The notes under the pieces were generated by a model. That model had not been told where the DNA came from and ran no database searches. It saw only the letters and a list, made by a program, of their open reading frames with translations. A DNA stretch of 64,000 nt from a virus (lineage: Duplodnaviria > Caudoviricetes), in IMG/VR virus record IMGVR_UViG_3300049988_000245, positions 96,001 through 160,000 of that record. The stretch is one strand, 5' to 3'. Positions 27-55,990 of the stretch are shown here, piece by piece; the first letter of the stretch is position 1, and every line of letters begins with the position of its first letter. Position numbers and translations under genes: made by a program.

Positions 27-332
27 TTAAGTCCATTCATCGTCGGTGACGACCGCTCCATGCCATCTGAGCTTAAACGCGACCGCCGTGGCGTAGTCTT
101 GAAAGACGATCGCCGGAACGGAGGCCGAAGTCTTGACCGGGCAGAGCCGGTATCGATCCTGCGCGTGTTCGTCCAGCCAGCGCGCCACAGGGTTGATCGG
201 GGAGGTCGTCGTGCAGAACGGGTATACGAGCGGGCTATCCTCGGAGAAGATCGCGCTGACCGTCCCTGCATCTCGCATCGTCCAGGGCACGCGGGGATCA
301 CCGCCCGGATGCTCGACCAATTTGAAGCTCAT
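27..332 (-). CDS. FKMRW-family small protein (short C-terminal extension)
   Basis: YPF..W..E..F..DYATAVAFKLRW motif; ATGA overlap with upstream paralog. Confidence 0.75.
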   Translation of the reverse strand: MSFKLVEHPGGDPRVPWTMRDAGTVSAIFSEDSPLVYPFCTTTSPINPVARWLDEHAQDRYRLCPVKTSASVPAIVFQDYATAVAFKLRWHGAVVTDDEWT

Positions 333-568
333 TGCCAGCGCATCCGGTAGGCGAACGCATCTGCGGGATCGGCGAATAGAAACACGAACAGGCCCGCCGG
401 ATCGTAATGAGGAGCGAAGTCGCCCTTACAGAACTCTTTGCACCAATCCGACTGAGCGGAGATGAACGCAAGAATTTCACCTTCCTCACGCATTTCGATG
501 ATCATCCGCGTTAGGTTGAGGTGTCCGTCATTCTCTTCGAGGAGCATTTCGTTGGCGTTCCGTCGCAT
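329..568 (-). CDS. FKMRW-family small protein
   Basis: Ends FADPADAFAYRMRWQ; start ATG overlaps upstream stop (TAATG). Confidence 0.8.
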   Translation of the reverse strand: MRRNANEMLLEENDGHLNLTRMIIEMREEGEILAFISAQSDWCKEFCKGDFAPHYDPAGLFVFLFADPADAFAYRMRWQ

Positions 569-825
569 TAGCACCATCTCATCTTAAACGCGAACGCATC
601 GTCTTCGTAACGGAACAGGAATCCCGAGCCCTGTCGGACCCACCGGCCATTGAACCAATCGTCATGAGGGATCGGGAAATTCTCGACGCACCATGCGGCA
701 ACCACATCGACCTGTCTCGTTCGATCCTTGATCTTTGCCAAAGATTCCTGTGAACCTCGCAGGACCATAATGAATCGATACGGGTAGATCGAGCCGTCAT
801 TCCGATCGACTTGCCGCCAGCGCAT
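568..825 (-). CDS. FKMRW-family small protein
   Basis: MRWRQVD..YPYRF..WCVENF..FRYEDDAFAFKMRWC; start placed at TGATG overlap at 825 rather than ORF-track 1119. Confidence 0.8.
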   Translation of the reverse strand: MRWRQVDRNDGSIYPYRFIMVLRGSQESLAKIKDRTRQVDVVAAWCVENFPIPHDDWFNGRWVRQGSGFLFRYEDDAFAFKMRWC

Positions 826-986
826 CATCCCCACCGCATCTTGAATTCGAACGCCGTGTCCGGGTCGGAGAATGTCACACCAACGCGCCCAATGGGGAAC
901 GTGAATCGGCCCGGCCTGGATGGTTCTTGCAGCCATTTCGTCAGATCGGGCGCGTGAGCATCGTCGAACGCTTTGCTCTTCGACAT
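825..986 (-). CDS. FKMRW-family member missing from ORF track (53 aa; possibly 5'-frameshifted)
   Basis: Manual translation MSKSKAFDDAHAPDLTKWLQEPSRPGRFTFPIGRVGVTFSDPDTAFEFKMRWG*. Confidence 0.7.
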   Translation of the reverse strand: MSKSKAFDDAHAPDLTKWLQEPSRPGRFTFPIGRVGVTFSDPDTAFEFKMRWG

Positions 987-1037
987 ATCCACGAAGATCA
1001 CGCACTCGACGAGGTGGGTACTTCTCCCAGGTTGCCA

Positions 1038-1334
1038 TCAGCCCCATCGCATCTTGAATTCGAACGCGTCCTGCTCGAACCGGAATTTGAACGAGGTCCC
1101 CTCGGAGGTCCAGCGCCATAGGTTGAGCGCACGGGCCGCCAGACGGTCATCGGTGCCGAACTGGAGACGACACCACTCGCTGGTCTCGTAGGCCGCTCTA
1201 CGGCGATCCTTGATGGTCTGGCGACGGAGGGCGATCTGCGCGGGCAGTGCGGCGAGCGCGGAGGTGTCGAGCGCGAACACGTACGGATAGCGCTCCTGTC
1301 CGACATTCGGTGGTGGGCTCATCTGCCAGCGCAT
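1038..1334 (-). CDS. FKMRW-family small protein
   Basis: YPYVF..EWCRLQFG..FRFEQDAFEFKMRWG; TAATG start overlap. Confidence 0.8.
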   Translation of the reverse strand: MRWQMSPPPNVGQERYPYVFALDTSALAALPAQIALRRQTIKDRRRAAYETSEWCRLQFGTDDRLAARALNLWRWTSEGTSFKFRFEQDAFEFKMRWG

Positions 1335-1594
1335 TACCCGAACCTCATCTGAAGAGCAAAGGCGTCTTCGATACGCGCGAACAGGATGGTCGAACCATGA
1401 ACGGCCCAAACAGTATTCGTCTCCGGCCCGTACTGTTCACGGCACCACTCGATCATGTCGTCTCGAAACTTGGCGCGGTCTTCCCATCCGGGAGACGCCG
1501 CCGTTCCGAAATGAGAACCCGGCGGTAGCCATATCCCATGCTGGAGTTCGGCGCCTAAACCTTCGTAGCTGAGATATTCCAGCCGGGCAGTCAT
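1334..1594 (-). CDS. FKMRW-family small protein
   Basis: EWCREQYG..FARIEDAFALQMRFG; TGATG overlap. Confidence 0.8.
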   Translation of the reverse strand: MTARLEYLSYEGLGAELQHGIWLPPGSHFGTAASPGWEDRAKFRDDMIEWCREQYGPETNTVWAVHGSTILFARIEDAFALQMRFG

Positions 1595-1833
1595 CAGCAC
1601 CACCTCAGTTTGAACGCCGTGGCATCCGATTCCAGCCGGAAAAGGAATTCGCGCTGAGTCACCGTATAGGTCCAGCGATTTGGAATGGACCCGTCAAACT
1701 GTTCACCGCACCACGAAATCACTTTGGTGAACCGCCTGATATCGAGATCATGCCGATCGCGTTGATCCCGGAGCACGAACACGTACGGAAACGTGTAGTC
1801 CTGTTGATCCAGAATGAAGCGAAGCTCGTCCAT
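1594..1833 (-). CDS. FKMRW-family small protein
   Basis: FPYVF..WCGEQF..FRLESDATAFKLRWC. Confidence 0.8.
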   Translation of the reverse strand: MDELRFILDQQDYTFPYVFVLRDQRDRHDLDIRRFTKVISWCGEQFDGSIPNRWTYTVTQREFLFRLESDATAFKLRWC

Positions 1834-9370: not shown

Positions 9371-9662
9371 ACTCTTCCCCGTTCGGATCGCGACGACGAC
9401 CACTCAGCGGGTGGCGATGCCATCCCTCAGGCTCACCCTTGCCATCCCAGGCTTCGAGAGCCGCACGGGCCGCATCCTCGTCGTGATAGCACCAACGATC
9501 TGAATAGGTATTGCGGTCGCCCATCTCGCCCACAATGATTGCCCAGGTGAACATCAGCCGGAGCAAGCCGGTCCAGCGTCCATCGCCGATCGGGCGCGGG
9601 TCGATGTAGCCGCCATCGGTTTTCAAGTAGTGGAGGAAAGAGAGTTCTTCGAGTCGAGTCAT
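9357..9662 (-). CDS. hypothetical protein
   Basis: MTRLEELSF..RWCYHD..A..AL..WDG; ATGA-type overlap with upstream gene. Confidence 0.6.
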   Translation of the reverse strand: MTRLEELSFLHYLKTDGGYIDPRPIGDGRWTGLLRLMFTWAIIVGEMGDRNTYSDRWCYHDEDAARAALEAWDGKGEPEGWHRHPLSGRRRDPNGEESIRY

Positions 9663-9958
9663 AGCATGATCCTGAATAGGAGAGCGGCGTCCGGATCGGA
9701 GAAATACGCGACGCAGCGCTCGACCGTCGCCCATTTCTCCTCTTGCCCTTCATTGAGGTGCGTCGTCCAGCGCCGGATATGGACGCGGCCCACGTCACGC
9801 TCTCTGATGAATTCCCGAGGATAGCGAACCAGGGCGGCAGAGCCGGAGAGCGTCCGGATCATCCGCTGGAAATCCTGCTTGGTCAGCGGCACGAGCAATT
9901 CCACCGGGGTGTACCCGGCGTAGTACTCCGCGTTGTTCCATTTAATAAAGGTCGCCAT
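9659..9958 (-). CDS. divergent FKMRW-like protein
   Basis: Ends YFSDPDAALLFRIML. Confidence 0.55.
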   Translation of the reverse strand: MATFIKWNNAEYYAGYTPVELLVPLTKQDFQRMIRTLSGSAALVRYPREFIRERDVGRVHIRRWTTHLNEGQEEKWATVERCVAYFSDPDAALLFRIML

Positions 9959-13129: not shown

Positions 13130-13244
13130 CTGAATCTCTCTCGTATAAGGATTCGACGAACAAATTTGGTTCGACGAAAATACCAATTGCATGGTTAACG
13201 GGTGTTTGGCAAGGTGGACGTACGAAAATCAGAAAGGTTCTAAT

Positions 13245-14096
13245 ATGCCGTTTAACCGTCGCGGGATTCTCGCTGGCCTCCTGGGAACGCCCCTGGGGAT
13301 CACCGCACTGAAGGCGATGCCGCTTCCGGCAGAGACCCAGAAGGCCATCGCGTTCACCCCCGAGGTGCAGAAGGCGGTCGAGAACATTCCCCCGCTCCCG
13401 ACCCCGAAACGCAATCTGCATCCGTTATTCGGATTCCAGACGATCGATGCCGAGCTTGGGTTCGCCTATACCCTGCGCAGCCGATACTCAGATGCGGTGA
13501 CCCTTGCGAATCCTGAGCCGCGCATCTCGATCCAGATTAACAAGGTGGTTGCTGGGGGTACATATTACCCGACGATGGACGCGGCCGAGGACGCGATCTT
13601 CAGTAAGTTCGCCATCACCCATCGCGAGGTGAGAAGCCCAGACAACCCCGAGCATACCAAGTTTCACCTCGTGCGGGCGGCGAACCGGATCGCCCAGACG
13701 ACCCGGCGCGGCATGGGTAACGTCATTCTCGTCCATCGGGATGACCTGCATCTACTCGATACCCCGTGGGTGGCCAACGTGATCCCCGAGCGAATCGGGC
13801 GGTGGTCGAACGTCGGGTTCACCCACAACCGAGTCTCCCAGGTCTGGGTCACCGACCGCCGTGTTCCTGCGATCCCGCACGGGAACGCGCTTGTGGGTTA
13901 TCGCGGATCGGAGTTAGACGCCCCTGCCGTTCTCACGTATCATCCGGGCTTTGGATACAGCTACGCGATGAACGAGAAGCCGGAAACCTACATGCACGTA
14001 GTCGGACTGACTGTGAAAGCCCGAGCGCCCCATACGGACGAGGCTATATGGGCGGAAGAGAAGCGGGGTGCCGTACGCCCCGTTCGCGCCGCATGA
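13245..14096 (+). CDS. Tat-leader protein made of T4-type major capsid protein segments
   Basis: N-terminal NRRGILAGLLG; GFQ...LG..YTLRSRY, RISIQINK, RAANRIAQTTRRGMGN, LVGYRGSELDA match gp23-family motifs. Confidence 0.75.
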   Translation: MPFNRRGILAGLLGTPLGITALKAMPLPAETQKAIAFTPEVQKAVENIPPLPTPKRNLHPLFGFQTIDAELGFAYTLRSRYSDAVTLANPEPRISIQINKVVAGGTYYPTMDAAEDAIFSKFAITHREVRSPDNPEHTKFHLVRAANRIAQTTRRGMGNVILVHRDDLHLLDTPWVANVIPERIGRWSNVGFTHNRVSQVWVTDRRVPAIPHGNALVGYRGSELDAPAVLTYHPGFGYSYAMNEKPETYMHVVGLTVKARAPHTDEAIWAEEKRGAVRPVRAA

Positions 14097-14287
14097 AGCG
14101 GCCTTCCTTAGAGAAGATCGCCCAGGCCCTTCCTCGCTCGCGTATCATGGCAGGCGAGTACACCTACCCGTACGCCGAGGGTGGGCCTCAGCGGCGGGTC
14201 TTCTACGCAGATGTGGGCACGCTTCCCCCGGAGGCGGCCAACCGATTCATCAAATCGCTCATGGAGAAGTACGATGGAACGTCGTAG
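14093..14287 (+). CDS. 64-aa portal (gp20) fragment-like protein
   Basis: GPQRRVFYADVGTLPPEAANRFIKSLMEKY resembles gp20 APERRIFYIDVGNLP..KA..Y...VM..Y; ATGA coupling to upstream gene. Confidence 0.65.
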   Translation: MKRPSLEKIAQALPRSRIMAGEYTYPYAEGGPQRRVFYADVGTLPPEAANRFIKSLMEKYDGTS

Positions 14288-14810
14288 CCTTCTCGCGGCC
14301 GGTGCTGCCGCGATCACCGGTCTGTTCGGCGCCAAGTCGGCTCAGGCGGCGCCCTCGGGCGCTCTCACTCTGGACGAAGCCACGCGGATCGTCGTCGGCA
14401 ACGTTCGTAATCCGCCTGCCCCGGAGGAGATTCAGCGTCTCATCGCGGGGATCAATATGCAGGTAATGAACCGGCTTACCCAAGCTGGCATCGTTGACCC
14501 GCAATACGTAATGACGAGCGCCGTGGTTCGCTTCCGGGGGCAGGTGGTCGAGGCCAAGACACGTAGGCTCTCTTCGCGTTACACGTTCGGAGAGAATGTC
14601 CCGCCGATCGTGCAGGCCGAGGTCGAAGCCACGTTGGTCGAGAGCATCGTGCAGGAGATCACCGCAGAGTTGGTCCGGCCCGAGAACAAGGGTATCCAGT
14701 ATTGTCCATACGAGTTGGTCACCAGTTCCGGGGTCATCCTCGATCCGGAAACGCTCAACCCCACGATATTCTTTCTGACCCGTTTTGGGACCTTCGTGAA
14801 AGCCGCATAG
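14274..14810 (+). CDS. Tat-leader protein made of major capsid protein segments
   Basis: MERRSLLAAG..AQA leader; VEAKTRRLSSRYTF, QEITAE, YCPY..SSGVILDPETLNP..F.TRFG. Confidence 0.78.
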   Translation: MERRSLLAAGAAAITGLFGAKSAQAAPSGALTLDEATRIVVGNVRNPPAPEEIQRLIAGINMQVMNRLTQAGIVDPQYVMTSAVVRFRGQVVEAKTRRLSSRYTFGENVPPIVQAEVEATLVESIVQEITAELVRPENKGIQYCPYELVTSSGVILDPETLNPTIFFLTRFGTFVKAA

Positions 14811-34594: not shown

Positions 34595-34595
34595 T

Positions 34596-41114: not shown

Positions 41115-41609
41115 ATGTGTGATCTCCTTTCGCTCCCCAAGCTCGACCATCCTCTGCTCGATCCTCACGCGATCATCGCCTGGGATATGGACGGGACGCT
41201 CATCGACGGTCCGAACGCGAAGTTTTTTCGCGCGTACATTCTCGCTCATCCCGAGAAGCAACATCACATTGTCACGTTCCGGACCGGACCGGCTCTGCGA
41301 ATCACTGAGGTGGAGATGTGGAAGGACGAGTGCGTGTACGAGTTGTTCCACCTCGGCGTCCCCCATGGGACGATCAAGCAGACTCACTCGATGCCCGACC
41401 ACCTCTATCACGCCTGGGCGCAGCGGAAGAGCTTCATCCAAGAGACCGAGGTCGCCGCGTTCCTTGACTGGAAGGGGAAGACCGCCGCAGAGATAGGCGC
41501 CACCGTGATGATCGATGATATGCCCGGAATGGTGAAGAAGGGCTGCGCCAAGTACGGAGTGACGTTCATCGACGCCCATAGTAAACAGTTCGGCTACGAG
41601 GGCGAATGA
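41115..41609 (+). CDS. HAD-superfamily hydrolase
   Basis: AWDMDGTLID motif I, K motif III, MIDD motif IV. Confidence 0.85.
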   Translation: MCDLLSLPKLDHPLLDPHAIIAWDMDGTLIDGPNAKFFRAYILAHPEKQHHIVTFRTGPALRITEVEMWKDECVYELFHLGVPHGTIKQTHSMPDHLYHAWAQRKSFIQETEVAAFLDWKGKTAAEIGATVMIDDMPGMVKKGCAKYGVTFIDAHSKQFGYEGE

Positions 41610-41836
41610 TGTGGTCGCAGGACGAGGACGAAACTGAGGTTTGGCGCCGGACCGATGGGGCTACGGTGAAACGTATGTCAGGCGCGACGCTGAATCCATA
41701 TTCGGTCCATGACCGGACCGGATGCGCGATGCAAAACTTCTATCCCGGACGCAAACCGGTTCGTAGGATGTTCAAGTCGCCTGAGTTCGCCATGCTCGCG
41801 GCGGACAAGCACTGGCCACTGAAGGTGGACGCATGA
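41606..41836 (+). CDS. hypothetical protein
   Basis: Coupled to neighbours by overlapping stop/start. Confidence 0.55.
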   Translation: MMWSQDEDETEVWRRTDGATVKRMSGATLNPYSVHDRTGCAMQNFYPGRKPVRRMFKSPEFAMLAADKHWPLKVDA

Positions 41837-42351
41837 GGTTGCTCCGGTACGTCGTCGAGCATCACCGGGCCAAGGGTCTCTGCCCGTATCAGATCGGCTT
41901 CAGGTCGTGGATCACCGACGAGGAGCGGGACGAGATGATTGCCTGGGCTCAGGCGAACTTGTCGGCGAACGCTGATTGGCACCCGCGCGCACATACGTGG
42001 CACTTCCCCACAGAGGAAGAGCTAAACGCGTTCATCGCGCATCGTCGGATGGACACCTGGGAAACGCGGATTCCACAGTGCATATGGGATGATGCCCCGT
42101 TCGAAGTGGCTGGATGGGTGACGGTGGACTCCCGAAAGCACCAGCGCCTCGATTTCGAAGAGAATTCTATCGACTGGTTCTGGTGCCGGGTGGACAAATG
42201 GGTCGTCGAGAATTGTCAGAAGCAGGTCATCAATTCGTCGCTCTCTCCGGGTCAGAATCGGGGGCGCGGTGCGCTTCTATCCAACTATGAGTCGCATTTT
42301 GGATTCGAGAGCGCCGAGGAAGCCACGTTGTTTCGAATTCGCTGGAACTAG
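41833..42351 (+). CDS. FKMRW-family protein with two tandem family-like domains
   Basis: PYQIGF..AW....WHFPTEEELNAF, then second unit ending FESAEEATLFRIRWN. Confidence 0.7.
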   Translation: MRLLRYVVEHHRAKGLCPYQIGFRSWITDEERDEMIAWAQANLSANADWHPRAHTWHFPTEEELNAFIAHRRMDTWETRIPQCIWDDAPFEVAGWVTVDSRKHQRLDFEENSIDWFWCRVDKWVVENCQKQVINSSLSPGQNRGRGALLSNYESHFGFESAEEATLFRIRWN

Positions 42352-42677
42352 CGCCTCTTTAGGGTGACCCGGTAGGCGCCGCCACCATTGAGGATTTCGA
42401 TCGAGCGAACCCCGTTGGCCCGCTCCATCCAGTGGGGAAACTCCCGGCAGATTGCCCCGGACTTTCCCGTGACGACGACGAAGCTCGCCACCCCGGCCTT
42501 GCGCTTCTCTTCGACCATCCCGAGTGTTCGGGTGTGAGCGGACGCGATCGTGTCCCCGTGGAGGTCGATCGATTCTAGGGGTAAGTATGGCTCCAGCCGT
42601 GGGTCACGGCGAATCTCGCCCTGGCCCAGCGGGGTTATAGAGCGTTTCACATATTCCCAGAGTGAATCTTTCTTCAT
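42348..42677 (-). CDS. Smr domain protein
   Basis: IDLHG, VVTGKSG, GGGA..V.LK motifs. Confidence 0.9.
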   Translation of the reverse strand: MKKDSLWEYVKRSITPLGQGEIRRDPRLEPYLPLESIDLHGDTIASAHTRTLGMVEEKRKAGVASFVVVTGKSGAICREFPHWMERANGVRSIEILNGGGAYRVTLKRR

Positions 42678-42902
42678 GGCTCGATTCGGCTAAAAAATTA
42701 ATCCACTTTACCGAATCTGCTTGCGCGGTCGCAATATCAAATTAGGTTTCTCACCGTACGGCTATGGCGTGAGAGCACGCATGCAGCAATGCATTCATTC
42801 GGCCGTGCAGATTCGAGACCCAAGCTAACCCTGAACGTCTCGTTTCGACCCTCGGTGCCGGTCTTTGTCTGGGTGCCCTTGGATGGGACCGGCACCGTTG
42901 GC

Positions 42903-43148
42903 TCAATACCAACGCAGCTTGAACTCCATCGCCGCGTCTGGATCGGTAAACGCGAATCCCGTCTTCTTCGATCCATACCAGCGACGCGCGAAATCCGTCT
43001 CGAATCGCGATCCGGGCGGGTCCATCGGCCCGAAGCGATCGACCACCCACCCTAGGATGGAAATATATTCGGCGAAGGCTTCCTCTTCGGCCCAAATGAA
43101 CCCGTAGGGATACCCGTGGAGGTTCTGGTGCTCTTTGAATCTTACCAT
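42903..43148 (-). CDS. FKMRW-family small protein
   Basis: YPYGF..WVVDRFG..FTDPDAAMEFKLRWY. Confidence 0.8.
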   Translation of the reverse strand: MVRFKEHQNLHGYPYGFIWAEEEAFAEYISILGWVVDRFGPMDPPGSRFETDFARRWYGSKKTGFAFTDPDAAMEFKLRWY

Positions 43149-43426
43149 TAGCACCACCGCATCTTGAAACCGAAAGCATCCTCTGAGTTGGCGAAGTAGA
43201 TGTTATAGGCTAAAGGCCGATAGCGGGTGAAATCCATGCCGTCGTACTGGTTTCTACACCACCACAGGATTTCATCCAGAAAATCTTCCGGATTTCCTAA
43301 GCCTTTATCGGTGAACGCCGTCGTCTTGAGGCGAAACCGGTATGGATAGGCAGTGCCTTCGGCTGTAGCCTCCTCCCACACGCGTATCCCTTCCCACTCC
43401 GGCTTCATCTGACTGATCCGTCGCAT
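43148..43426 (-). CDS. FKMRW-family small protein
   Basis: YPYRF..WCRNQY..FANSEDAFGFKMRWC. Confidence 0.8.
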   Translation of the reverse strand: MRRISQMKPEWEGIRVWEEATAEGTAYPYRFRLKTTAFTDKGLGNPEDFLDEILWWCRNQYDGMDFTRYRPLAYNIYFANSEDAFGFKMRWC

Positions 43427-43662
43427 CAGGTCCACCGCAGTCGAAATTCCATGATGTCGTCCGGTTGTGTGAGGACGATCGCATAGGGGTAGTAGGCCCA
43501 GCGCTTCGGTACGTCGGTAACCTGCTGGATTTCTTCCGCCTCACCGAATCGCGATATGCACCAGATCACCACGGCGTTGTAACGGACCATATCGGCGGCC
43601 TTGCCGACGAAGTGAACGGTGCCTTCGACTGAATGGTCTATGTGAAATCGAAGATCGTCCAT
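43426..43662 (-). CDS. FKMRW-family small protein
   Basis: WCISRFG..LTQPDDIMEFRLRWT. Confidence 0.8.
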   Translation of the reverse strand: MDDLRFHIDHSVEGTVHFVGKAADMVRYNAVVIWCISRFGEAEEIQQVTDVPKRWAYYPYAIVLTQPDDIMEFRLRWT

Positions 43663-43979
43663 CACCCCTGAGCCCATTTGGCTTGGCCATTTTCGTACAT
43701 GGTAAACCTCTTGCCCCGTAGGAGATCGGTCGTCAGAGCGAACCGACCGTTGACGAGCCGTTCCGTGCCTCCCGAGCAGGCGTAGAGAAGCCCGTCGTTG
43801 GGATTGCGCAGATAGGTGGGGCCGCCGCAGACCATGTCGCGCGCATCCATAGAATGAAATAGCTCCGTCTCTTCGTCCTCGTGCCAGCCCTTGGCCTTGA
43901 GCGCATCGACCTGAGCGAAACGACCATACTCCATCGGGGATGCTCCTAAAATTGGTTCGACGAAAATTATTGCGCGCAT
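43662..43979 (-). CDS. hypothetical protein
   Basis: Co-oriented and coupled to FKMRW array. Confidence 0.5.
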   Translation of the reverse strand: MRAIIFVEPILGASPMEYGRFAQVDALKAKGWHEDEETELFHSMDARDMVCGGPTYLRNPNDGLLYACSGGTERLVNGRFALTTDLLRGKRFTMYENGQAKWAQG

Positions 43980-44018
43980 GGTTAATGCCCGCTATGGTCC
44001 CTTCATCGAACAGGGGAT

Positions 44019-44447
44019 GTGCCTGACCCTAGTCGAGTGATTAAAATTTTTCCAGGCATTCTTGATTTTTCCAAGGTTACTATTTTCATGTCCGACTCCG
44101 TTGCTGCAACCGAAGCCCGTCGTCCGCGCGCCCCCAAGGGTGGTCGCGTCAAGGAGCGCGCCCGCCGCGTCATCGACACCGCCAGCCTCGCCGACTACCT
44201 CGCCGGTCTCGATCTCGGTGTGAACCCGTCCATCCATGTGAACGGCCACGCCTTCCAGATGGCCCTTGTCACGGTCGATTTCGGCCAGCCCCTCAAGTCG
44301 ATCAAGCTCACCCAGGAGCAGAACGCCGAGTTCACCGATCGCCTTCGCAAGCTCGGTCGCGAAGTCCTCGGCCGTGGCGAGAACGCCGCCGTGCGCGTCT
44401 CCCACGACCTCACCGCTGGTCTGGTTTACTACGTCAGCGCGGTCTAA
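44019..44447 (+). CDS. hypothetical basic protein (start probably 44088)
   Basis: Strong host-like codon bias, followed by terminator. Confidence 0.6.
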   Translation: MPDPSRVIKIFPGILDFSKVTIFMSDSVAATEARRPRAPKGGRVKERARRVIDTASLADYLAGLDLGVNPSIHVNGHAFQMALVTVDFGQPLKSIKLTQEQNAEFTDRLRKLGREVLGRGENAAVRVSHDLTAGLVYYVSAV

Positions 44448-44517
44448 CTCGAATCCCCGTGCTCCGAGGGGTTATTCGGGCGGACTCCTCTTTTGTTCCC
44501 ACTTGGGTAACCAACTT

Positions 44518-44548
44518 GGGCGTCACCTTCGCGGGTGTCGCCCTTTTT
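44518..44548 (+). terminator. intrinsic terminator
   Basis: GGGCGTCACC-loop-GGTGTCGCCC-TTTTT. Confidence 0.65.
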
Positions 44549-44552
44549 CGTG

Positions 44553-45284
44553 TCAGTCGTCGTCCTGGGGAATCGACCGGGGAGGTACCGGGACCCCATA
44601 GTAGGGATCGACCTCCTGCCGATCATACGGGGACGGCTCCCGGCGGGTCTCCGCTCGCACGTATGGGGGCGGAACCCGGCGCGGCTCTTCCAGGCTGAAC
44701 GTCGGGGGCTCTCGGCGCGGCTCCGCTTGAACGGTCCGTCTGGGAACCTCGCCGACCGGCTTAGGCTCGTACAGGGACAGAATTTCGTCCGGACGCTTCA
44801 ACGGCATCGCGCGGACCGTCTCGACCACCCTGGGGTAGCCTAGAGACTCCGCCACGCCTGATCGGCTCGCCACAGACGCCCGACCCATCTCGATCCCGTG
44901 GCAAGCGGTAAAATAGATGGCCGTGAAGTTCGCTGACTTGCGAATCGTCTCCGGTGGATCGGGATTGAACGGCGCGATCATCAGGGCGACCACCTTGCCC
45001 GGACGCTCTGCGATCAGCGTGGGATGGCGCTTCGAGCAGTACACGTAGGATTTTTCCTTCGCCGCTGCCTGCCGTCCTGCGTGGCTGGCCTTGTACATAT
45101 CGATGGAAACCTGTCGAAGCGTCCCATCGGGAATCTCCCGGACCACGCTGTTCTGGGTGATCTGGAACTCGTCGCACCCGTCCTTGTGGCACAGCGCGCG
45201 TACCAGATCGGGGCGCGGTCCTCCCGGCTCCGCATAGGCGTATGAAACTAGCAACACGGATGCTATGGCAGCGACGGCGCGCAT
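44553..45284 (-). CDS. secreted protein with Pro/Arg-rich tail
   Basis: Signal MRAVAAIASVLLVSYAYA; Cys pairs; repeated EPRR..PP C-terminus. Confidence 0.6.
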   Translation of the reverse strand: MRAVAAIASVLLVSYAYAEPGGPRPDLVRALCHKDGCDEFQITQNSVVREIPDGTLRQVSIDMYKASHAGRQAAAKEKSYVYCSKRHPTLIAERPGKVVALMIAPFNPDPPETIRKSANFTAIYFTACHGIEMGRASVASRSGVAESLGYPRVVETVRAMPLKRPDEILSLYEPKPVGEVPRRTVQAEPRREPPTFSLEEPRRVPPPYVRAETRREPSPYDRQEVDPYYGVPVPPRSIPQDDD

Positions 45285-45376
45285 AAAGTTCCCCCTTGGA
45301 ATGACACCCATCCATAGGCAAAAACTTTGCCGAGATCGAGGCGAATCCCGGACACAACGCGACAATAAATACCGTC

Positions 45377-46057
45377 ATGCGTTACCAAGAATTTGCCCGA
45401 CCCATTGTGAATGAGATCGAAACGAACGCCCAGATGGGCGATGACGCGTTTATTGATCATCTCCATAAAGATGACTTCAGCGGTCGTCAGTTGGACCTGT
45501 TCAGGGAAATCCCGTCGCTGGAGCCAGACATTCCACCGAACTATAAGTTCGTGGGTCGGCTCGGTGAATTCTTCGTCGCCAAACGGAACAAAGAACGCGG
45601 GAATCCCTACACCAGCTACGTATTCTTCAATCGAGATTCAGCACTCGGATATGTCTCGCTCGCCGCGTATGACCGGTCGGCCTCGCAGTATCCCGCCCAT
45701 GCCCCGGAGGCGCCCGAACTGTCCGGCATCGGACTTCGCATCCATGGGGTGCAAGTACAGCCGAAGTTCCGAGGTCAGGGCCTGGGTTTGAAAATGTACA
45801 AGTGGCTGTTGGAGAACGTCTGCGACTACTTGATGGCCGATGACGTACAGACTCCCGATGGCGTCGCGCTGTGGAAACGCCTCCAGGCGCAATCGAACAT
45901 CTTCACCGTCGAGGTCTGGGACGGTGAGAAGTTCGAATCTCGCTTCCGAAAGCGTGGGCGGGATTTTAATTACGTGTACGACAAATGCCACCTCATCCCA
46001 TGGGTAACGATCCCGTCGAAATACGAAATGGTTATCGAACATCCTGACAACAACTAA
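45377..46057 (+). CDS. GNAT-family acetyltransferase
   Basis: VQVQPKFRGQGLGLKMY acetyl-CoA motif, D..QTPDG..LW. Confidence 0.8.
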   Translation: MRYQEFARPIVNEIETNAQMGDDAFIDHLHKDDFSGRQLDLFREIPSLEPDIPPNYKFVGRLGEFFVAKRNKERGNPYTSYVFFNRDSALGYVSLAAYDRSASQYPAHAPEAPELSGIGLRIHGVQVQPKFRGQGLGLKMYKWLLENVCDYLMADDVQTPDGVALWKRLQAQSNIFTVEVWDGEKFESRFRKRGRDFNYVYDKCHLIPWVTIPSKYEMVIEHPDNN

Positions 46058-46359
46058 GCTGGATTCCCTCGTAGGATTCGTGTACCCCGCAGGGCATGCG
46101 ACACCTCCCTATAATCGGCTCCGTTCTCGTTGGCCTCTCGATCGTCCCCGCGCTCTACCTGGGCCTGCTTTACAGCCGTGGGCAGACCTTTCCGGGGATG
46201 CCTCGCTGGATGGTCCCGGTGAGTCCCACGGGGGTCGTGAGGCTCCCTGATCCGGTCGAATTGGTTGAGCCCATTCAGGTGGCCGTACTGGCGCCCCCGA
46301 AGTCTATTCAGGCACGTGCGGGTAAGCTAAAGTAGCCGCTGATCTCTCATGGATATCTC

Positions 46360-46638
46360 ATGGCCGTCGAATCGTGGACGCTGATCTTCTCCCTCCTGTT
46401 CCTCCAGCAGGAGAGCGGTACCCCAGCGAAAATCGAGCACATGCCACCGATCCTGGGAATCGAGTCGGAGAAACTGTGCACGGCGGCCAAGGACGCGATG
46501 ATCGACGCGTATGAGGGCGAGGCGACCGAGCCGATGGCCGACTACGAGCCTCCGAAGGATCAGCCGGACAAGGCTCAGCCGTTGGATGAGCAGTTCCACT
46601 TGATGCGCCCGATCGGGGTCTGCATCAAAGTGAGGTGA
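46360..46638 (+). CDS. small exported/membrane protein
   Basis: Hydrophobic N-terminus, C...K..C pattern. Confidence 0.45.
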   Translation: MAVESWTLIFSLLFLQQESGTPAKIEHMPPILGIESEKLCTAAKDAMIDAYEGEATEPMADYEPPKDQPDKAQPLDEQFHLMRPIGVCIKVR

Positions 46639-47029
46639 TACGCTCCTCGTAATGGAGCTTGCGGTGGCAGTTTGCGCAGAGAACAATGCATTTGGCGATC
46701 TCCCGCATGACACGTTTTCGCGCGGCTCGTGCGATCAGCGTGGCGACTCCGCCATCTTCCTTGTCGCCATTGGGATGGTGAAAATCGAGACAACCGGGGT
46801 GATTTTCTGGACAGCGCTCACATACAAGCGTTGACTTGTATTCGTGAAACCAAATCTTAGTTGTCTTCCTCTGAATAACTCTTTTCTTGAGATAAAAATC
46901 CTTATTTTCGAGGTAATGTTCTCGACGATAGGATTTTTGACAAACTTTACACTTTGATTGATGTCCGTTCCCACGCTTATTAAAGCAGGAAAACTCTTTC
47001 TGTTCTTTACAGTCACTGCATGTTCTCAT
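46625..47029 (-). CDS. HNH endonuclease (tRNA-cluster associated)
   Basis: CSDC..C..C N-terminal Zn motif, CERC..LDFHH, KCIVLCANCHRKLH; AT-rich. Confidence 0.9.
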   Translation of the reverse strand: MRTCSDCKEQKEFSCFNKRGNGHQSKCKVCQKSYRREHYLENKDFYLKKRVIQRKTTKIWFHEYKSTLVCERCPENHPGCLDFHHPNGDKEDGGVATLIARAARKRVMREIAKCIVLCANCHRKLHYEERITSL

Positions 47030-48199: not shown

Positions 48200-49137
48200 C
48201 TTAGACGGAGGGAATCACGCTTGGCCGTGACCCGATCGATGATTTTCTTGTCGATCGGGAATGTTCCGACCTCCGCCAGGATCGCGGTAGCCAGATAGTC
48301 GTCCGCGTAGACGATACCGGAGAACGGCTTCGCAGTGGGGCGCTTCGATCCGCGTGAACCGACACCCATCAACTGATCGTACAGGTTCCGCCACGCGCCA
48401 CCATCGATCACGACCCCACCGGGCTTCGTCGCGAGCTTCACGCTCAGGTTTCCGCTAACTCGGCTGAGGACGTTCGCAAGCTCGGGCGACGGCGCCGGTA
48501 GGGCCACACGGGCGGAACGCTCCTTCTTGTCCTTGCCCGCCCGCATGATCCGGGTGAGAACCCCTGTAGGACGGTTCCACAATAGGTGGATGAATATCTT
48601 CCAGTGCGTTTTCACGAATTTCGGGGACGCCGCATAGAAGGCCGCCGCCATCACTCCACCGAGTACACCCGCGAAGAAAACTAGAAACGACACCTTTCCG
48701 ACGTCGAGCCCGTCGAAGCGAAGGTGGGTAAATGAGCCTGATCGGGCGACCATCATGATGTAGACACCAACGATCCAGCAGAGACCAAACAGCGTGTACC
48801 ATGCGATCAGGCCGCTGACACGCTTTGCTTCCTTGACCGCGTTGATAGCAACGAACCCATCCGAATCGGGCTCGACCTGCCAGAGGTTCGATTCTTTGCA
48901 GATACTGTCCCACCACACATTAGGGAGGATTACCAACGGCGCCACGCCGCTCGCCGTGAGCCTGCTCTGAAGGCGTGCCGCCGCTTGTTCGTAATCCTTC
49001 GCGCTGAGTGTCCAGTCTTCGCTGGCCCTTTGCGGCGCCTCGACCGCGAACCCGCCGACGTACTTCACCGTGGTTGGTGTCGGACCCTGATCGATGGCGG
49101 AGCCGGTGACCTTCGAGAGGTAGGAAAAGTTCGACAT
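48196..49137 (-). CDS. two-TM membrane protein
   Basis: Two hydrophobic helices mid-protein; TAATG coupling to FKMRW gene. Confidence 0.6.
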   Translation of the reverse strand: MSNFSYLSKVTGSAIDQGPTPTTVKYVGGFAVEAPQRASEDWTLSAKDYEQAAARLQSRLTASGVAPLVILPNVWWDSICKESNLWQVEPDSDGFVAINAVKEAKRVSGLIAWYTLFGLCWIVGVYIMMVARSGSFTHLRFDGLDVGKVSFLVFFAGVLGGVMAAAFYAASPKFVKTHWKIFIHLLWNRPTGVLTRIMRAGKDKKERSARVALPAPSPELANVLSRVSGNLSVKLATKPGGVVIDGGAWRNLYDQLMGVGSRGSKRPTAKPFSGIVYADDYLATAILAEVGTFPIDKKIIDRVTAKRDSLRLR

Positions 49138-49391
49138 TAAATCCATCTCATCTTGAACGCGAAGGCGTCGTGCGTGGCGTAGAAATCCATAAAGATGCGA
49201 TGTTGATCGATCCCACCGAGAAGCGGACCCGCGACCACTCCGAAATGGCACTGATAGGCAATGTCATTTTCGTACATCCACTCTCGAACGGCATGGCTCG
49301 GACCCGTGAAATACCATCTTCGGTTAAGTGAACCTAACCGTGGCCGAAGCTCCATCTCGTGCTCCAGCCAAGGTAGGGCGACCGAATACAT
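49137..49391 (-). CDS. FKMRW-family small protein
   Basis: EWMYEN..FYATHDAFAFKMRWI. Confidence 0.8.
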   Translation of the reverse strand: MYSVALPWLEHEMELRPRLGSLNRRWYFTGPSHAVREWMYENDIAYQCHFGVVAGPLLGGIDQHRIFMDFYATHDAFAFKMRWI

Positions 49392-49393
49392 GG

Positions 49394-49651
49394 TTATCCC
49401 CAGCGCATTTTGAACGCGAATGCCTGATCGGCGGACATGGAAAGCGCAACCATGCCGGTGACTGATCGGTAGCAGTACCATCCCGGCGCGTTTTCGTCCA
49501 ACCAAATAAGCACGTTCGTCCGTAGGCTGAGTGGTAAGCTCCCCCATTCCTCTGCTGGTCCATATGCGATACCGACGACCTGCGGATGACTCAGATCATC
49601 AATAAAGGTGCGCATGAGGCCCGTGTGAGGGGGAACGGATTGGAATCTCAT
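49394..49651 (-). CDS. FKMRW-family small protein
   Basis: WLDENA..MSADQAFAFKMRWG. Confidence 0.8.
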   Translation of the reverse strand: MRFQSVPPHTGLMRTFIDDLSHPQVVGIAYGPAEEWGSLPLSLRTNVLIWLDENAPGWYCYRSVTGMVALSMSADQAFAFKMRWG

Positions 49652-50990: not shown

Positions 50991-51254
50991 ATGCTTATAG
51001 AACACCGCGATACGGCTATGCGGCTGAAAGAACACCTCAAGACCCAGCGGGCCATCGACCCTACCGTGGGCGTGGGGTCGGCATTCCGGCCCGGCCTGAC
51101 CGAGGGTAGCGTCGTCGTGCCCGCGTTGTACGTGTATCTGAGCGAGGTCGATATGAAGCGCATCTCGCTGCCCCTGAACGAGTTCGAGGGGATGCCGGTG
51201 ATCTACCGGGTCGGGGAAGCTCGAATCTCGGGGACCAAGGCCGGGCAGTGGTGA
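50991..51254 (+). CDS. hypothetical protein
   Basis: Coupled to FKMRW pair downstream. Confidence 0.5.
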   Translation: MLIEHRDTAMRLKEHLKTQRAIDPTVGVGSAFRPGLTEGSVVVPALYVYLSEVDMKRISLPLNEFEGMPVIYRVGEARISGTKAGQW

Positions 51255-51514
51255 TCGAACGCTCCGGTCTGGGATTTGCCCTAAGCCCGGATGGGCTGGA
51301 CGTGTTCCGTGAGATCAAATCCATGCAAGGGTCTGTATATGGGTTCGATTTCGTCGCCATCGGCGATTGGTTGATCGATAACGATTATCATCTCTATCTG
51401 CTCTATAGAGAGAAAGTGATGAAGAAAGGAGTTACGTATGATTCTAATTGCATAGGTGGTTTCTTTATGGAATCTGAGGAGCATCACGTGGCGTTCCGGA
51501 TGCGTTGGTTCTGA
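51251..51514 (+). CDS. FKMRW-family small protein
   Basis: DWLIDN..MESEEHHVAFRMRWF. Confidence 0.75.
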   Translation: MIERSGLGFALSPDGLDVFREIKSMQGSVYGFDFVAIGDWLIDNDYHLYLLYREKVMKKGVTYDSNCIGGFFMESEEHHVAFRMRWF

Positions 51515-51801
51515 TGCCGCTGATTCGGATATCCGACACGATGACGTTCCGAGAGACCGACACTTTGGTGATCAAAGAATGCGAGGACGGCTGGTGGGGC
51601 TATGCTTTCATCCGGCCGTATCCGGATAACATGCTCCCTCCAGGGGATCACAGTTTCGAAACAGTCTACTCCGACGCCCTAGCATGGTGTCAGGAGCGAT
51701 TCGGAATTCCAATCAAACGCTGGAAGCCCGCAATCAGCGATCTATTCATCCTGCTCCACCGCGAGTCAGACGCGTTCGAATTTAATCTTCGCTGGTGTTA
51801 A
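51514..51801 (+). CDS. FKMRW-family small protein
   Basis: RPYP..AWCQERFG..LHRESDAFEFNLRWC. Confidence 0.78.
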   Translation: MPLIRISDTMTFRETDTLVIKECEDGWWGYAFIRPYPDNMLPPGDHSFETVYSDALAWCQERFGIPIKRWKPAISDLFILLHRESDAFEFNLRWC

Positions 51802-52578: not shown

Positions 52579-52788
52579 TCAATCCGATGGAGGTTTGTCG
52601 TCCGGTTTTGCCGCGACCGACCCGATGATGAAGCCGACCATCATCGCCTGTTGCTCCGCCTCGGTCTTGGGAAGCATCCCGAGCTTGTCGAGGAGCAGGC
52701 AGGCCCCGAGAAGAACTATAAACGTCACGCCGAACTGAAATACGAGCGCCATCAAGGCGAAGAGAACGTTCAGCAGAACCTCGTTCAT
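52579..52788 (-). CDS. small membrane protein
   Basis: Hydrophobic helices; ATGA overlap with topoisomerase gene. Confidence 0.55.
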   Translation of the reverse strand: MNEVLLNVLFALMALVFQFGVTFIVLLGACLLLDKLGMLPKTEAEQQAMMVGFIIGSVAAKPDDKPPSD

Positions 52789-54134
52789 TTTAACTTCACC
52801 AGTTCGTCGAGTTCGGACAAGTAGACGGCCTTCAATTTTGCCGGGTCTTCCAGGGTGGCCTTATAGTCGAAAATGCTTGTGCTCAGCGCAGCAATTTTCG
52901 TTTCCACCTCCGCTTCGAATTCCTTGGTCCAGCGGTACGTCGCAAGGTTTAGCACGCGATCCATCTGGCTGTCGATGACGAAAAGCTTCGCTTTCTTAAC
53001 CACCTTGGAGACTTCTTCCGCCATGGCTGCGCGATCCGTAAACGTCCCAAGCTTCTTAGTGAATCCGGCCTGGAACAGTGCCCGCAGCACCAGCCAGTAG
53101 TTTCGCTCGTGATCGGTATCCGCGAGTAGCTTTTCAAACCGCTTCGTATACCAACTCAGACGCCATTCGACGAAGTCTCGAACCACCGAGGCGGCGTCCG
53201 AGTACGTGCGGATGGAAATGCCGTTCCAATCGATCACCACGATGCGTTCGGTGGTCTTCTCCCGAAGTTTGAAGTAGTCGATGGCCGTGTCTGGCTTCCA
53301 ATTCTTGATTGAGCCGCGTTTGAACTTTACCGAAATATCAATCGAATCAGTTGAACGATCGGTGAATGAGACAATCGTATCGAGTTCTTCCATCTGAATC
53401 AGGCGCTTGCGGAAATTCTCCAGGGAGAGGTCCGGGGGAAGCTCAATGATCCGCACGGTGGACGAATCTTCGATCACCGCCTTGCCAGAAAACTCGTACT
53501 GATTCAGGCCAGTACCCTTCACGGTGATGTTGTAGCGGTCGTACGAGGGCTCCAACCCCTTCAGGGTCTCCTTCTCGTTCAATGCGTCCTTCGTGGCCTG
53601 TACGAGGCCCTTCAGGGCGCGCGGAAGGATTTCCGTGGACCATCCCACGGCAATCCCGGAGATGCCGTTGAGCAGCACCAGGGGAACCAGTGGGAGGAAG
53701 TGGATCGGCTCCTTGTTCGAGCCATCGTAATTGTCCTTCAGGGGAACCAGATCGAGATCGCGGTAGAGAAGCATCTCGGCGGTCTTCGCCCTCCGAACCT
53801 CGGTGTAACGGGGTGCGCCGATGCCCTCGACAGGAGCAACGCGGTTGCCGAACTGGCCCAGGCCCTCGATCAGCGGGGCGTTGTTCTTATAGGGTGCGGC
53901 CAGCAGGCCGATCATGTTGTTCGCTGAGGTCTCACCGTGCACGTACAGGCGCTCGTACCCCATCAGGCCGGAGAGCGCGAACGTCTTGAGCTTGTCCGGG
54001 CGATTGCGTAGCAGCCACAGGGCAATCCGCTGACCGTGCTTGAGCCCGTCTTGAACAGCGGGAATCGCGCGGGTCGCGCAGACGTAAATGGAATACTCGC
54101 GAGAGGAGTTGATCAGATATTGGCTGGCCGTCAT
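52785..54134 (-). CDS. gp52: type II topoisomerase, GyrA/ParC-like subunit (T4 gp52-like)
   Basis: DGLKHGQR, YVHGE, GQFG, GAPRYTE catalytic Tyr. Confidence 0.95.
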   Translation of the reverse strand: MTASQYLINSSREYSIYVCATRAIPAVQDGLKHGQRIALWLLRNRPDKLKTFALSGLMGYERLYVHGETSANNMIGLLAAPYKNNAPLIEGLGQFGNRVAPVEGIGAPRYTEVRRAKTAEMLLYRDLDLVPLKDNYDGSNKEPIHFLPLVPLVLLNGISGIAVGWSTEILPRALKGLVQATKDALNEKETLKGLEPSYDRYNITVKGTGLNQYEFSGKAVIEDSSTVRIIELPPDLSLENFRKRLIQMEELDTIVSFTDRSTDSIDISVKFKRGSIKNWKPDTAIDYFKLREKTTERIVVIDWNGISIRTYSDAASVVRDFVEWRLSWYTKRFEKLLADTDHERNYWLVLRALFQAGFTKKLGTFTDRAAMAEEVSKVVKKAKLFVIDSQMDRVLNLATYRWTKEFEAEVETKIAALSTSIFDYKATLEDPAKLKAVYLSELDELVKLK

Positions 54135-54184
54135 AATGCTCTTTACAAAATTAGACTAATATATATTCCAAAATCGCCGAATGA

Positions 54185-54613
54185 CTACCGATAAGTCAAC
54201 TTGAAAAAGATTGCGTCTTCGCTGCGCGTGAAATGGTAATTCATTCCATTGTCCGAGAACACCAGCATGATGCCAAACATGTTCTCGGCAAAATCCTGCA
54301 ATTCTCCGAACGGAACCGCTTTCGCATAAGACAGAACGACCGAACTCGGAGCAACCTCACGGGCGATCTGCGCGAAGGCAATGCGCGATTCCATATAGGC
54401 TTTCTGTTGCTGGTACTCGGCCTCGACGAATCGTGTCGAGTAGTGGTCCGTATCGACCATCTTCACTTGGAAGTCGCTGCTGCGTCGAATCTCGCCTGGA
54501 TTCAAGCTGGCAACGAATAGCCGCGCCTCATTCATGATGAGGGGCATATCCTTGCTATATCTACTACTTCCGGTAGGGGTGGAATCGTTTAAGATCGGGA
54601 CTATCGAGGACAA
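54185..54613 (-). CDS. divergent FKMRW-like protein
   Basis: Ends YHFTRSEDAIFFKLTYR. Confidence 0.55.
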   Translation of the reverse strand: MSSIVPILNDSTPTGSSRYSKDMPLIMNEARLFVASLNPGEIRRSSDFQVKMVDTDHYSTRFVEAEYQQQKAYMESRIAFAQIAREVAPSSVVLSYAKAVPFGELQDFAENMFGIMLVFSDNGMNYHFTRSEDAIFFKLTYR

Positions 54614-55088
54614 ATTTAGCCATCACTGCTTCTTTTATGTCCGAAAAGTACAGGATGGTACCTATGGAGTAACTATAAAAACGCGCGGCACGGCCCGATC
54701 GCCATGTTCCGTTCTGGTTACGGAATTCGCGAAGACTGTCCTCGTTCAGATTTGCCCCCGAGAGCACAACCTTATGTGGGGTGATACGTTCGAGTGCGAT
54801 CAGATGAGATTGCATCATGTCCATCATCTGCTGCTCCGTCTCAACCTTCCCGAAGGTGGTCTCGTACAGTTCATGGACTTTGCGGGAGAGCACAACCCGA
54901 CCCTCCTGGGCACCGAACACCGAAATGATCAGGGACGATGCCGCAATGATCAGATCGGTGCGTTCCAGGGAGAGTAGGTGGTCAGGTCTCACGTAAAGCG
55001 CGTTGAACACGGCCCGTTGTGCCTCCCTATGGCATTCCTCTGGGTAGTACGCGGTATAGCACCGCGTACACCCGCAATACAGAGGCAT
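54564..55088 (-). CDS. divergent FKMRW-like protein
   Basis: LYFSDIKEAVMAKF near C-terminus. Confidence 0.45.
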   Translation of the reverse strand: MPLYCGCTRCYTAYYPEECHREAQRAVFNALYVRPDHLLSLERTDLIIAASSLIISVFGAQEGRVVLSRKVHELYETTFGKVETEQQMMDMMQSHLIALERITPHKVVLSGANLNEDSLREFRNQNGTWRSGRAARFYSYSIGTILYFSDIKEAVMAKFVLDSPDLKRFHPYRK

Positions 55089-55100
55089 GGCCTAGGATGG

Positions 55101-55769
55101 TTAAAACGCCATCCGGGCGAATGCAGCTTCACCGGGATCGGAGAAATAGTAGGTCGCCGAGAGCGCGTCGATTGCCTCTTGCTTCCCAAAGTAGGCGCCG
55201 CTACTCAAGAATTTTTCCAGCTTGATCCGGGCTTCGCGATCAACCGAACCACCAACGATGCCCGAGGCGCCGTATTGCTGAAAGAACTTGATCCACTCTT
55301 CCGCTTTGATGATCCTGGGAGACTCGAACCGATGCAAGTAACGAGTCTCAAGAACCTCCTCGTACGCATCCAGCGCGGCGGTCTTGGTAAAGAACAGGTC
55401 GTGGTTGGTCTGAGACCAATGGTTGAACGCACCGAAGCTCAGAACGAGCGGGCGAGCGGTCTGCTCATCGATCCAGCGGTTGATCCACGGGATAAGGGAT
55501 TCGGATTCGAGGGCAATCACGGGATTCTCAATACCGGTCGCGTTAATGTAGTTGAAAATAGACAGTTCGTTCTCAAACAGGGTCGCATCAGTCACCGGAG
55601 GGACGATAATCTCATCCCCTGCGTCTTCGTTCTGTTTTGCCAGCCATGCGAGGTATTCCTCGTCCGTCTCCGTCTCGGGTTCTGGTTTCGGCTCAAACTC
55701 GTATGGCGCCCAGGCGGGATTCAACTTATTTTGTTTGAGCGTCCACTCTTGAATTTCTTGTTCTGTCAT
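55101..55769 (-). CDS. divergent FKMRW-like protein, two-domain
   Basis: WIDEQ..LFFTKTAALDAY, then YYFSDPGEAAFARMAF. Confidence 0.5.
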   Translation of the reverse strand: MTEQEIQEWTLKQNKLNPAWAPYEFEPKPEPETETDEEYLAWLAKQNEDAGDEIIVPPVTDATLFENELSIFNYINATGIENPVIALESESLIPWINRWIDEQTARPLVLSFGAFNHWSQTNHDLFFTKTAALDAYEEVLETRYLHRFESPRIIKAEEWIKFFQQYGASGIVGGSVDREARIKLEKFLSSGAYFGKQEAIDALSATYYFSDPGEAAFARMAF

Positions 55770-55990
55770 CAGTCGCCTATAGCCCAAAATGTCTTCAACA
55801 ACGTTGCTGAGTTAACGTCGTACATTACAATATTAGCCTGCCATGAAACCACGTCTTTTTCATCATAAATCTCCCAGCATGACATGGCGGCCACCGAATC
55901 CTCCGGGAGGTTTTCCTTGCACCACGCGCGGAGTGCTTCAGGGTCCTTGATCCGGATGGTGAAGTCGAACGCGTCGGATTCGGTGGCCAT
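55769..55990 (-). CDS. divergent FKMRW-like small protein
   Basis: AWCKENL..MYDVNSATLLKTFW. Confidence 0.5.
   Translation of the reverse strand: MATESDAFDFTIRIKDPEALRAWCKENLPEDSVAAMSCWEIYDEKDVVSWQANIVMYDVNSATLLKTFWAIGD

Follow-up and report, generated by a model that had tools for sequence, protein, structure and literature searches.

Large families of paralogous genes are a known feature of jumbo phages, and the family described here fits that kind. Comparable gene sets are found in other viruses: African swine fever virus (ASFV) multiplies its multigene families MGF360 and MGF505, poxviruses multiply their ankyrin and host-range families, and T4-like phages hold small early genes in hyperplastic regions. 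The two-layer fold of DCoH/pterin-4a-carbinolamine dehydratase (PDB 1uso and 2ebb; PF01329), with the order strand-strand-helix-strand-strand-helix, is also among the closest known systems. In Bacillus phage G, a zinc-ribbon family of about 35 copies has been called unprecedented (Iyer et al., 2021; PMC7824862). Here we analyze a 64,000-nucleotide stretch of viral DNA, referred to throughout as the window, which corresponds to bases 96,001-160,000 of a 265,895-bp IMG/VR viral contig (IMGVR_UViG_3300049988_000245) with an estimated completeness of 57% (CheckV). It encodes tandem arrays of small paralogous proteins, typically 70-110 residues long, that end in DAFxFKMRW or a close variant. These are predicted to share one small alpha/beta domain, and we tentatively read them as a diversified set of cytoplasmic binding proteins.

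Identification of the family

The strict motif lies near the end of 17 stop-to-stop open reading frames (ORFs) of the window. A seed profile hidden Markov model (HMM), built from the last 45 residues of 16 ORFs ending in FK.RW, matches 27 window ORFs at E<1e-3 and on iteration converges on 31, with zero matches in three genome shuffles and in the reversed ORFs. On the whole contig the iterated profile recovers 91-92 members and an independent six-frame search recovers 89. Their domains make up 10% of the window sequence and 7% of the contig sequence, and the genes form 46 clusters over both strands, the largest of nine and eight genes. The contig thus holds tens of paralogues of one small domain, clustered and deeply diverged, as expected of a jumbo-phage multigene family. 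The initial annotation, which had reported an expanded family with about 30 paralogous small proteins in tandem arrays across the window, is borne out by these counts. Its arrays are reproduced at 27-1833 (seven genes), 15511-16928 (five), 36981-40154 (nine), 42903-43677 (three), 49137-49651 (two) and 51248-51801 (two), as are its singletons at 27286-27588 and 41833-42351. The roughly five divergent members that it also proposed stand only in part: 9659-9958 belongs to the family, 55769-55990 is a possible member and 54185-54547 a weak one, and the ORFs at 54564-55088 and 55101-55787 are not supported (hhalign probability 1-2%), having just a YFSD..EA stretch in common. The members in the window are as follows, each recognized by an HMM match unless other support is given.

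27-332, minus strand: family member, 101 residues, with an 11-residue tail beyond the RW motif (HMM match and gene model)
329-568, minus strand: family member, 79 residues, start overlapping the upstream stop (TAATG)
568-828, minus strand: family member, 86 residues (YPYRF ... WCVE ... FKMRWC)
825-1037, minus strand: short family member, 53 residues from an internal ATG, possibly a frameshifted or truncated copy
1038-1322, minus strand: family member, 94 residues
1334-1594, minus strand: family member, 86 residues, ending QMRFG
1594-1833, minus strand: family member, 79 residues, first gene of the seven-gene array
9659-9958, minus strand: divergent family member, 99 residues, ending LFRIML (E 0.039 with the seed profile, 2e-10 after iteration)
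15511-15960, minus strand: family member with a C-terminal extension beyond FRIKYG (iterated HMM)
15951-16160, minus strand: family member, 69 residues, ending FKMSWG (iterated HMM)
16157-16414, minus strand: family member, 85 residues
16414-16662, minus strand: family member, 82 residues
16662-16928, minus strand: family member, 88 residues, first gene of the five-gene array, downstream of an nrdA-like gene on the same strand
27286-27588, minus strand: singleton family member, 100 residues
36981-37229, plus strand: family member, 82 residues, GTG start, first gene of the nine-gene array
37226-37498, plus strand: family member, 90 residues
37498-37782, plus strand: family member, 94 residues
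37782-38114, plus strand: family member, 110 residues
38114-38338, plus strand: family member, 74 residues
38335-38955, plus strand: family member, 206 residues, with an N-terminal extension of about 135 residues
39038-39406, plus strand: family member, 122 residues, N-terminal transmembrane helix followed by basic residues
39406-39762, plus strand: family member, 118 residues, N-terminal transmembrane helix
39759-40154, plus strand: family member, 131 residues, N-terminal transmembrane helix
41833-42351, plus strand: singleton family member, 172 residues, two tandem domain copies, the first a weak match (independent E-values 0.022 and 3.5e-4)
42903-43148, minus strand: family member, 81 residues
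43148-43426, minus strand: family member, 92 residues, the last 70 modelled with AlphaFold2
43426-43677, minus strand: family member, 83 residues
49137-49391, minus strand: family member, 84 residues
49394-49651, minus strand: family member, 85 residues
51248-51514, plus strand: family member, 88 residues, GTG start, ending FRMRWF, the weakest significant match (E 2e-4)
51514-51801, plus strand: family member, 95 residues
54185-54547, minus strand: doubtful distant member, ending SEDAIFFKLTYR (HMM E 0.0056; hhalign probability 17%)
55769-55990, minus strand: possible distant member, 73 residues, with WCKEN and a degenerate terminal helix (hhalign probability 55%; HMM E 0.012-0.054)

At the short copy, the coupled ATG at 1038 opens a frame other than that of 825-1037, and on the minus strand of 825-1146 the two frames look like a single gene that a 1-nt shift close to the YP codons has divided. 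The copy may be a pseudogene, the sequence may contain an assembly error, or translation may begin at a short internal start.

Domain fold and conservation

For the last 70 residues of the 43148-43426 gene, AlphaFold2 run with an alignment of 91 paralogues from the contig gives a predicted local distance difference test (pLDDT) score of 89.9, the elements following in the order strand, short helix, long helix, strand, strand, helix. A second model, of a full-length homologue from another source (pLDDT 94.4; predicted template modelling score 0.82), adds an N-terminal strand to give strand-strand-helix-strand-strand-helix. The alignments behind the two models are largely non-overlapping, since 89 of the 90 rows of the second do not come from the source genome. 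In the models, YPY.F is the strand preceding the long helix, WC.E.FG the end of that helix and DAFxFKMRW the last helix. Across the 91 paralogues the most conserved positions are the Trp of helix 1 (94%, in W-C/L-x-E-x-F-G) and the Gly that follows it (96% where present), an aromatic residue in the next strand (Trp, Tyr or Phe in all but one copy having a residue there), the Phe of the F-x-F strand (69%) and, in the last helix, Ala (85%), Phe (90%), Lys/Arg (95%), Met/Leu (85%), Arg (86%) and Trp/Phe (95%). The consensus of this terminal helix is D-A-F-x-F-K/R-M/L-R-W, usually followed by one more residue and the stop codon. The conserved columns comprise aromatic and aliphatic residues, one Gly, one Lys/Arg and one Arg, with no invariant residue of a catalytic type among them, and the isoelectric point of the domain ranges from 4.5 to 9.2. 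Because of this pattern of conserved columns and the spread in isoelectric point, we conclude that the protein consists of a single small domain whose core is conserved and whose surface varies. A constant C-terminal module on a variable body, as first described, is not what the models and alignment give; rather, the last helix is the best conserved element of a single domain of 70-76 residues.

The family represents a phage-specific and uncatalogued small domain of approximately 70-76 residues, alpha/beta in the two models. That the members would share a fold agrees with the single, confidently predicted structure, and no well-characterized domain matches them. Specifically, none of 91 domain segments matches Pfam-A at E<=0.01 and ten full-length members give nothing meaningful there at E<=1; none of the 91 members matches PHROGs at E<=1e-3, where the best E-value of ten full-length members is 0.036; none of the 91 matches the PADLOC defence models; and a sequence profile search of the PDB returns no match. 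Structure searches return uncharacterized phage proteins only, and no structural match stands out from background. For PCD/DCoH (PF01329), in which active-site histidines are conserved, there is no Pfam match, and His is not among the four commonest residues in any well-occupied column of the alignment. Neither was the ACT/ferredoxin-like topology (strand-helix-strand-strand-helix-strand) found together with a profile match. Such a domain might bind small molecules or act as a "sponge" for them, immune signalling nucleotides being one example, and form oligomers as ACT-like domains do, but conserved polar pocket residues are lacking, the structural matches remain at background level and ninety copies are hard to square with few ligands, which makes this reading very unlikely. 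As an analogue in terms of gene arrangement, the immunity-protein arrays of polymorphic toxin systems were considered and set aside, as there was no profile match to them, adjacent toxin genes not having been looked for.

The domain is also found in larger contexts. In four members an N-terminal transmembrane helix precedes a basic stretch, three of these members being encoded by the adjacent genes at 39038-40154 and one elsewhere in the genome, and from the positive-inside rule we infer that the domain of these anchored copies faces the cytoplasm. Database homologues with two or three copies of the domain exist, as in the two-domain protein at 41833-42351. The approximately 135-residue N-terminal extension of the 38335-38955 protein matches no known family in Pfam, PHROGs or a word-index protein search, and the N-terminal extensions of the members in general match neither other proteins of the contig nor Pfam, apart from a single Gp23 segment that is discussed below. 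The basic residues of the last helix invite the proposal that the copies bind nucleic acid, as small RNA- or DNA-binding regulators or as structural DNA-binding proteins, a role similar to one suggested for the zinc-ribbon family of Bacillus phage G. However, the median net charge of the domain is -2 and many members are acidic, the structure searches again provide no match above background, and four members are membrane-anchored; we regard this explanation as unlikely. A homodimer prediction with two copies of the 70-residue domain gave a score of 0.13, for which the tool issues no verdict, and it speaks neither for nor against binding. Separately, the Cys that follows the helix-1 Trp and a terminal Cys co-occur beyond expectation, both in the source genome (odds ratio 5.1, p 0.0095) and among database homologues (odds ratio 3.3, p 0.043), which could reflect a Cys pair or mere shared ancestry.

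Gene junctions and codon usage

At the junctions within the arrays the stop codon of one gene overlaps the start codon of the next (TGATG, TAATG or ATGA). The Arg of the terminal motif is encoded by all six Arg codons, with AGG or AGA in 29 of 75 cases (39%) compared with 7% of the Arg codons in long ORFs, so that these rare codons are enriched about five-fold at the motif. Defining a coupled start as a start codon at most 17 nt downstream whose ORF is 50 residues or longer, 25 of the 29 copies with AGG or AGA have one, as do 26 of the 47 copies with other codons (Fisher p 0.006). Since AGG and AGA are both enriched and tied to coupled starts, the choice of Arg codon is not neutral and selection acts also at the level of RNA. 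The string AAG-ATG-AGG-TGG contains GAGGTGG, which is a close match to the Shine-Dalgarno consensus and lies 5-8 nt before the next start. We propose that, when the Arg codon is AGG or AGA, the end of one gene doubles as the ribosome-binding site of the next, which would make the gene junction a clear case of selection acting on a single short sequence through the protein as well as through the RNA. Exactly one residue follows the motif in 127 of 155 motif-bearing database homologues, and this fixed distance to the C-terminus fits either a structural need or the overlapping junction. As for transcription signals, a scan of window positions 35900-44500 for sigma-70-type promoters and terminators gave nothing above shuffled sequence, and the T4 late-promoter motif TATAAATA is absent.

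The source phage and its gene content

The replication and nucleotide-metabolism genes around the arrays give an indication of the type of phage involved. The relevant genes of the window are these.

17454-19934: nrdA-like gene for the large subunit of a class I ribonucleotide reductase
52785-54134 and 56232-58115: both subunits of a T4-type topoisomerase II
60987-62294: ClpX with a zinc-finger N-domain

The nearest large subunits of the topoisomerase are those of Sinorhizobium phage Phosso (469-kb genome; 57% identity) and Agrobacterium phage Atu_ph07 (490 kb; 51%), and the ClpX-topoisomerase neighbourhood is common to Atu_ph07 and the window. DNA of the phage recurs in several leaf metagenomes and partly in silage metagenomes; contigs of four metagenome runs compared with window positions 27000-46999 contain the same phage in other leaf samples and variants of it in silage. 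Of the listed sequencing runs in which the DNA occurs, none is registered as RNA. Because of the topoisomerase similarity, the shared neighbourhood and the recurrence in metagenomes, the source organism is an uncultured jumbo phage of the Atu_ph07/Phosso type. Many of the leaf and silage contigs end or are joined at the terminal motif that the family genes share, at window positions 27313, 37229, 38082 and 43146-43180 (for example, 27313 is joined to 43146), which is probably assembly ambiguity at a short repeat and not evidence of recombination.

Two further features of the window were noted. On the minus strand, 21075-23393 encodes a 772-residue protein, a structural-type gene amid replication genes. 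Residues 408-608 of the protein have 35-40% identity with tail or tail-fibre proteins from phiCbK-like phages of Caulobacter. On the plus strand, within the minus-strand nrd region, 13149-15250 contains ORFs that correspond to parts of a Gp23-type major capsid protein (Pfam positions 113-353), and some of these ORFs have Tat-like leaders; a full-length capsid gene was not found on the 265,895-bp contig.

Distribution and relatives

The initial annotation had proposed carrying an HMM search to the rest of the genome and to other jumbo phages, and such searches find many further members beyond the 91-92 of the contig. In a profile search of 1.84 billion representative proteins, 4,198 clusters match at E<=1e-3, and only five of the best 150 matches stem from the source genome. 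Phosso has 42 matches, all checked ones being annotated as hypothetical, and Atu_ph07 has four weak ones. In a search of related loci with 12 strict members, four huge-phage fragments in IMG/VR contain 16, 16, 20 and 57 matches, the 57 lying within 75 kb. A related phage known from contigs of 77-122 kb has about 18 copies in 20 kb, adjoining NAD-salvage genes, and a phage contig of 37% GC contains an array of eight. Among bacterial genomes of the order containing Methylobacterium, one of 301 has a match; the matching protein carries two domains and is encoded by an SU10-like prophage of Methylobacterium terricola. The arrays in huge phages and the single match in 301 bacterial genomes lead us to conclude that the family is, as judged from its occurrence in sequence collections, essentially viral, occurring for the most part in large lytic phages and, as a rule, in arrays. 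The relatives were found by profile searches only, since tblastn with one member against 50,697 phage records matched nothing; word-index protein searches likewise returned the window's own proteins alone, and a literature search for the motif string found nothing. It should be noted that a domain matched by about 4,200 metagenome clusters is nevertheless without a Pfam or PHROGs entry.

The comparison with Atu_ph07 bears on the possibility that the copies act as adaptors that dock, through the conserved helix face or the W-x-COOH end, on one partner, such as the phage ClpX or a host machine, and that their variable parts bring host proteins for degradation or sequestration. The fixed end, the terminal helix as the best conserved element and the presence of ClpX with a zinc-finger N-domain in the window would all fit this arrangement. 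However, the models predict a packed helix rather than a free tail for the terminal motif, the fixed end could equally stem from the overlapping stop/start junction, and Atu_ph07 has ClpX yet only four weak family members. We consider docking on such a hub improbable. A low probability is also given to a combinatorial adaptor system, in which about a hundred interchangeable targeting subunits would plug, by way of the conserved terminal helix and the fixed W-x-COOH end, into one hub such as the phage ClpX or some other single machine, and the variable parts, including grafted peptides like the capsid-protein segment of one copy, would select different host or defence proteins.

Evolution of the copies

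No two paralogues are more than 47% identical over the domain, and best matches have a median identity of 37%. For 41 of the 91 members, a relative in a small sample from outside the genome is at least as close as any copy within it. Because of the low identity between paralogues and the equally close outside relatives, the expansion is old. Between two strains of a related phage, the ratio of non-synonymous to synonymous differences (pN/pS) is 0.127 for 15 pairs of family orthologues (190 synonymous and 92 non-synonymous differences), compared with 0.101 for 13 neighbouring genes. The copies are thus maintained under purifying selection, neither decaying nor visibly racing. This agrees with the selection on the protein that had earlier been read from the synonymous Arg codons of the motif; diversification, also part of that earlier description, is not shown by old paralogues and by orthologues that are constrained much like their neighbours. 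There is turnover nonetheless, as a frameshift splits one copy in one of the two strains (L012 versus L013), its counterpart in the other being intact, and copy content differs between the strains. This frameshift and the possibly truncated copy at 825-1037 would fit a reading of the genes as junk or selfish duplicates without a function for the phage. That is scarcely probable, as pN/pS is 0.13, the same as in neighbouring genes, and the core of the fold is conserved across GC-rich and AT-rich phages.

A capsid-segment fusion outside the window

One of the 91 members, located 16 kb beyond the end of the window (contig positions 175,996-176,457; G000, L006:15996-16454, plus strand), is fused to a segment of a major capsid protein. 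Its N-terminal ~50 residues align to residues 89-135 of T4 gp23, ahead of a normal family domain (Pfam Gp23, E 4.7e-12; PDB 6uzc_a, E 1.2e-5), and this is the most conserved segment of gp23. The segment presumably overlaps the Gol peptide, which binds EF-Tu and triggers the Lit protease. Gol is described in a review that gives no residue numbers (PMC3014915). As the fusion demonstrates, a peptide can be grafted onto the domain, and this one might be a decoy, a capsid contact or something else. A role in the virion, as capsid decoration, internal or ejected proteins or assembly helpers, would be in line with the fusion and with an ESM Atlas cluster, similar by features, in which 13% of members have Gp23 matches (score 0.84, taken as a lead only). 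Against this, a single member has the fusion, four are membrane-anchored, the arrays lie amid replication and nucleotide-metabolism genes, and there are no matches to structural-protein families. Virion-associated or assembly proteins are quite unlikely on this balance.

Proposed function

We propose a hypothetical role for the family in which the ORFs would encode non-enzymatic cytoplasmic binding modules, consisting of a common scaffold with variable loops, charge and N-terminal segments. The approximately 90 diverged copies would act together as a panel directed at different proteins of the host or its defences, with some of the copies anchored in the inner membrane or present twice in a single chain, and the panel would serve host takeover or counter-defence inside the infected cell. 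This reading, a diversified set of cytoplasmic binding proteins, is the one that we tentatively favour because the domain looks non-enzymatic, the anchored copies appear to be cytoplasmic, expression is coupled, the copies are under purifying selection, the surface is variable and the family is restricted to viruses. Several points weigh against it. The Gp23 fusion could point to the virion, and no other fusion to a domain of known function was found. Purifying selection and the great age of the copies are unlike a fast arms race, and the Lys/Arg and Arg conserved in the last helix, instead of being purely structural, might indicate that the copies share a ligand, for instance nucleic acid or a hub protein. 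The presence of 42 matches in the cultured phage Phosso makes the function of this huge-phage family directly testable.

Comparison with known systems

What is added here to the picture of such families is a fold topology obtained from two alignments, the pN/pS of orthologues, the use of gene ends as Shine-Dalgarno sequences, a membrane-anchored subgroup, a fusion to a capsid segment and the presence of the family in Phosso. In terms of copy number the family exceeds the ~35-copy expansion of phage G. Both consist of tens of deeply diverged copies of a small domain in a very large phage genome, arranged in arrays, but the present domain is alpha/beta and without zinc ligands, its 91 copies are found on a contig estimated at 57% of the genome and are scattered over about 46 clusters instead of one block, and it spans many phage lineages (4,198 clusters). 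With MGF360/505 of ASFV and the ankyrin and host-range families of poxviruses it has in common that one binding scaffold is multiplied and that copy content varies between strains. There is no homology to them, however, and those families have documented roles in host range or immune evasion. Like the hyperplastic regions of T4-like phages, the arrays consist of short, dense and often coupled ORFs between conserved genes of replication and nucleotide metabolism, one of them directly downstream of the nrdA-like gene. The difference is that those regions hold many unrelated ORFans, whereas here a single family fills the slots.

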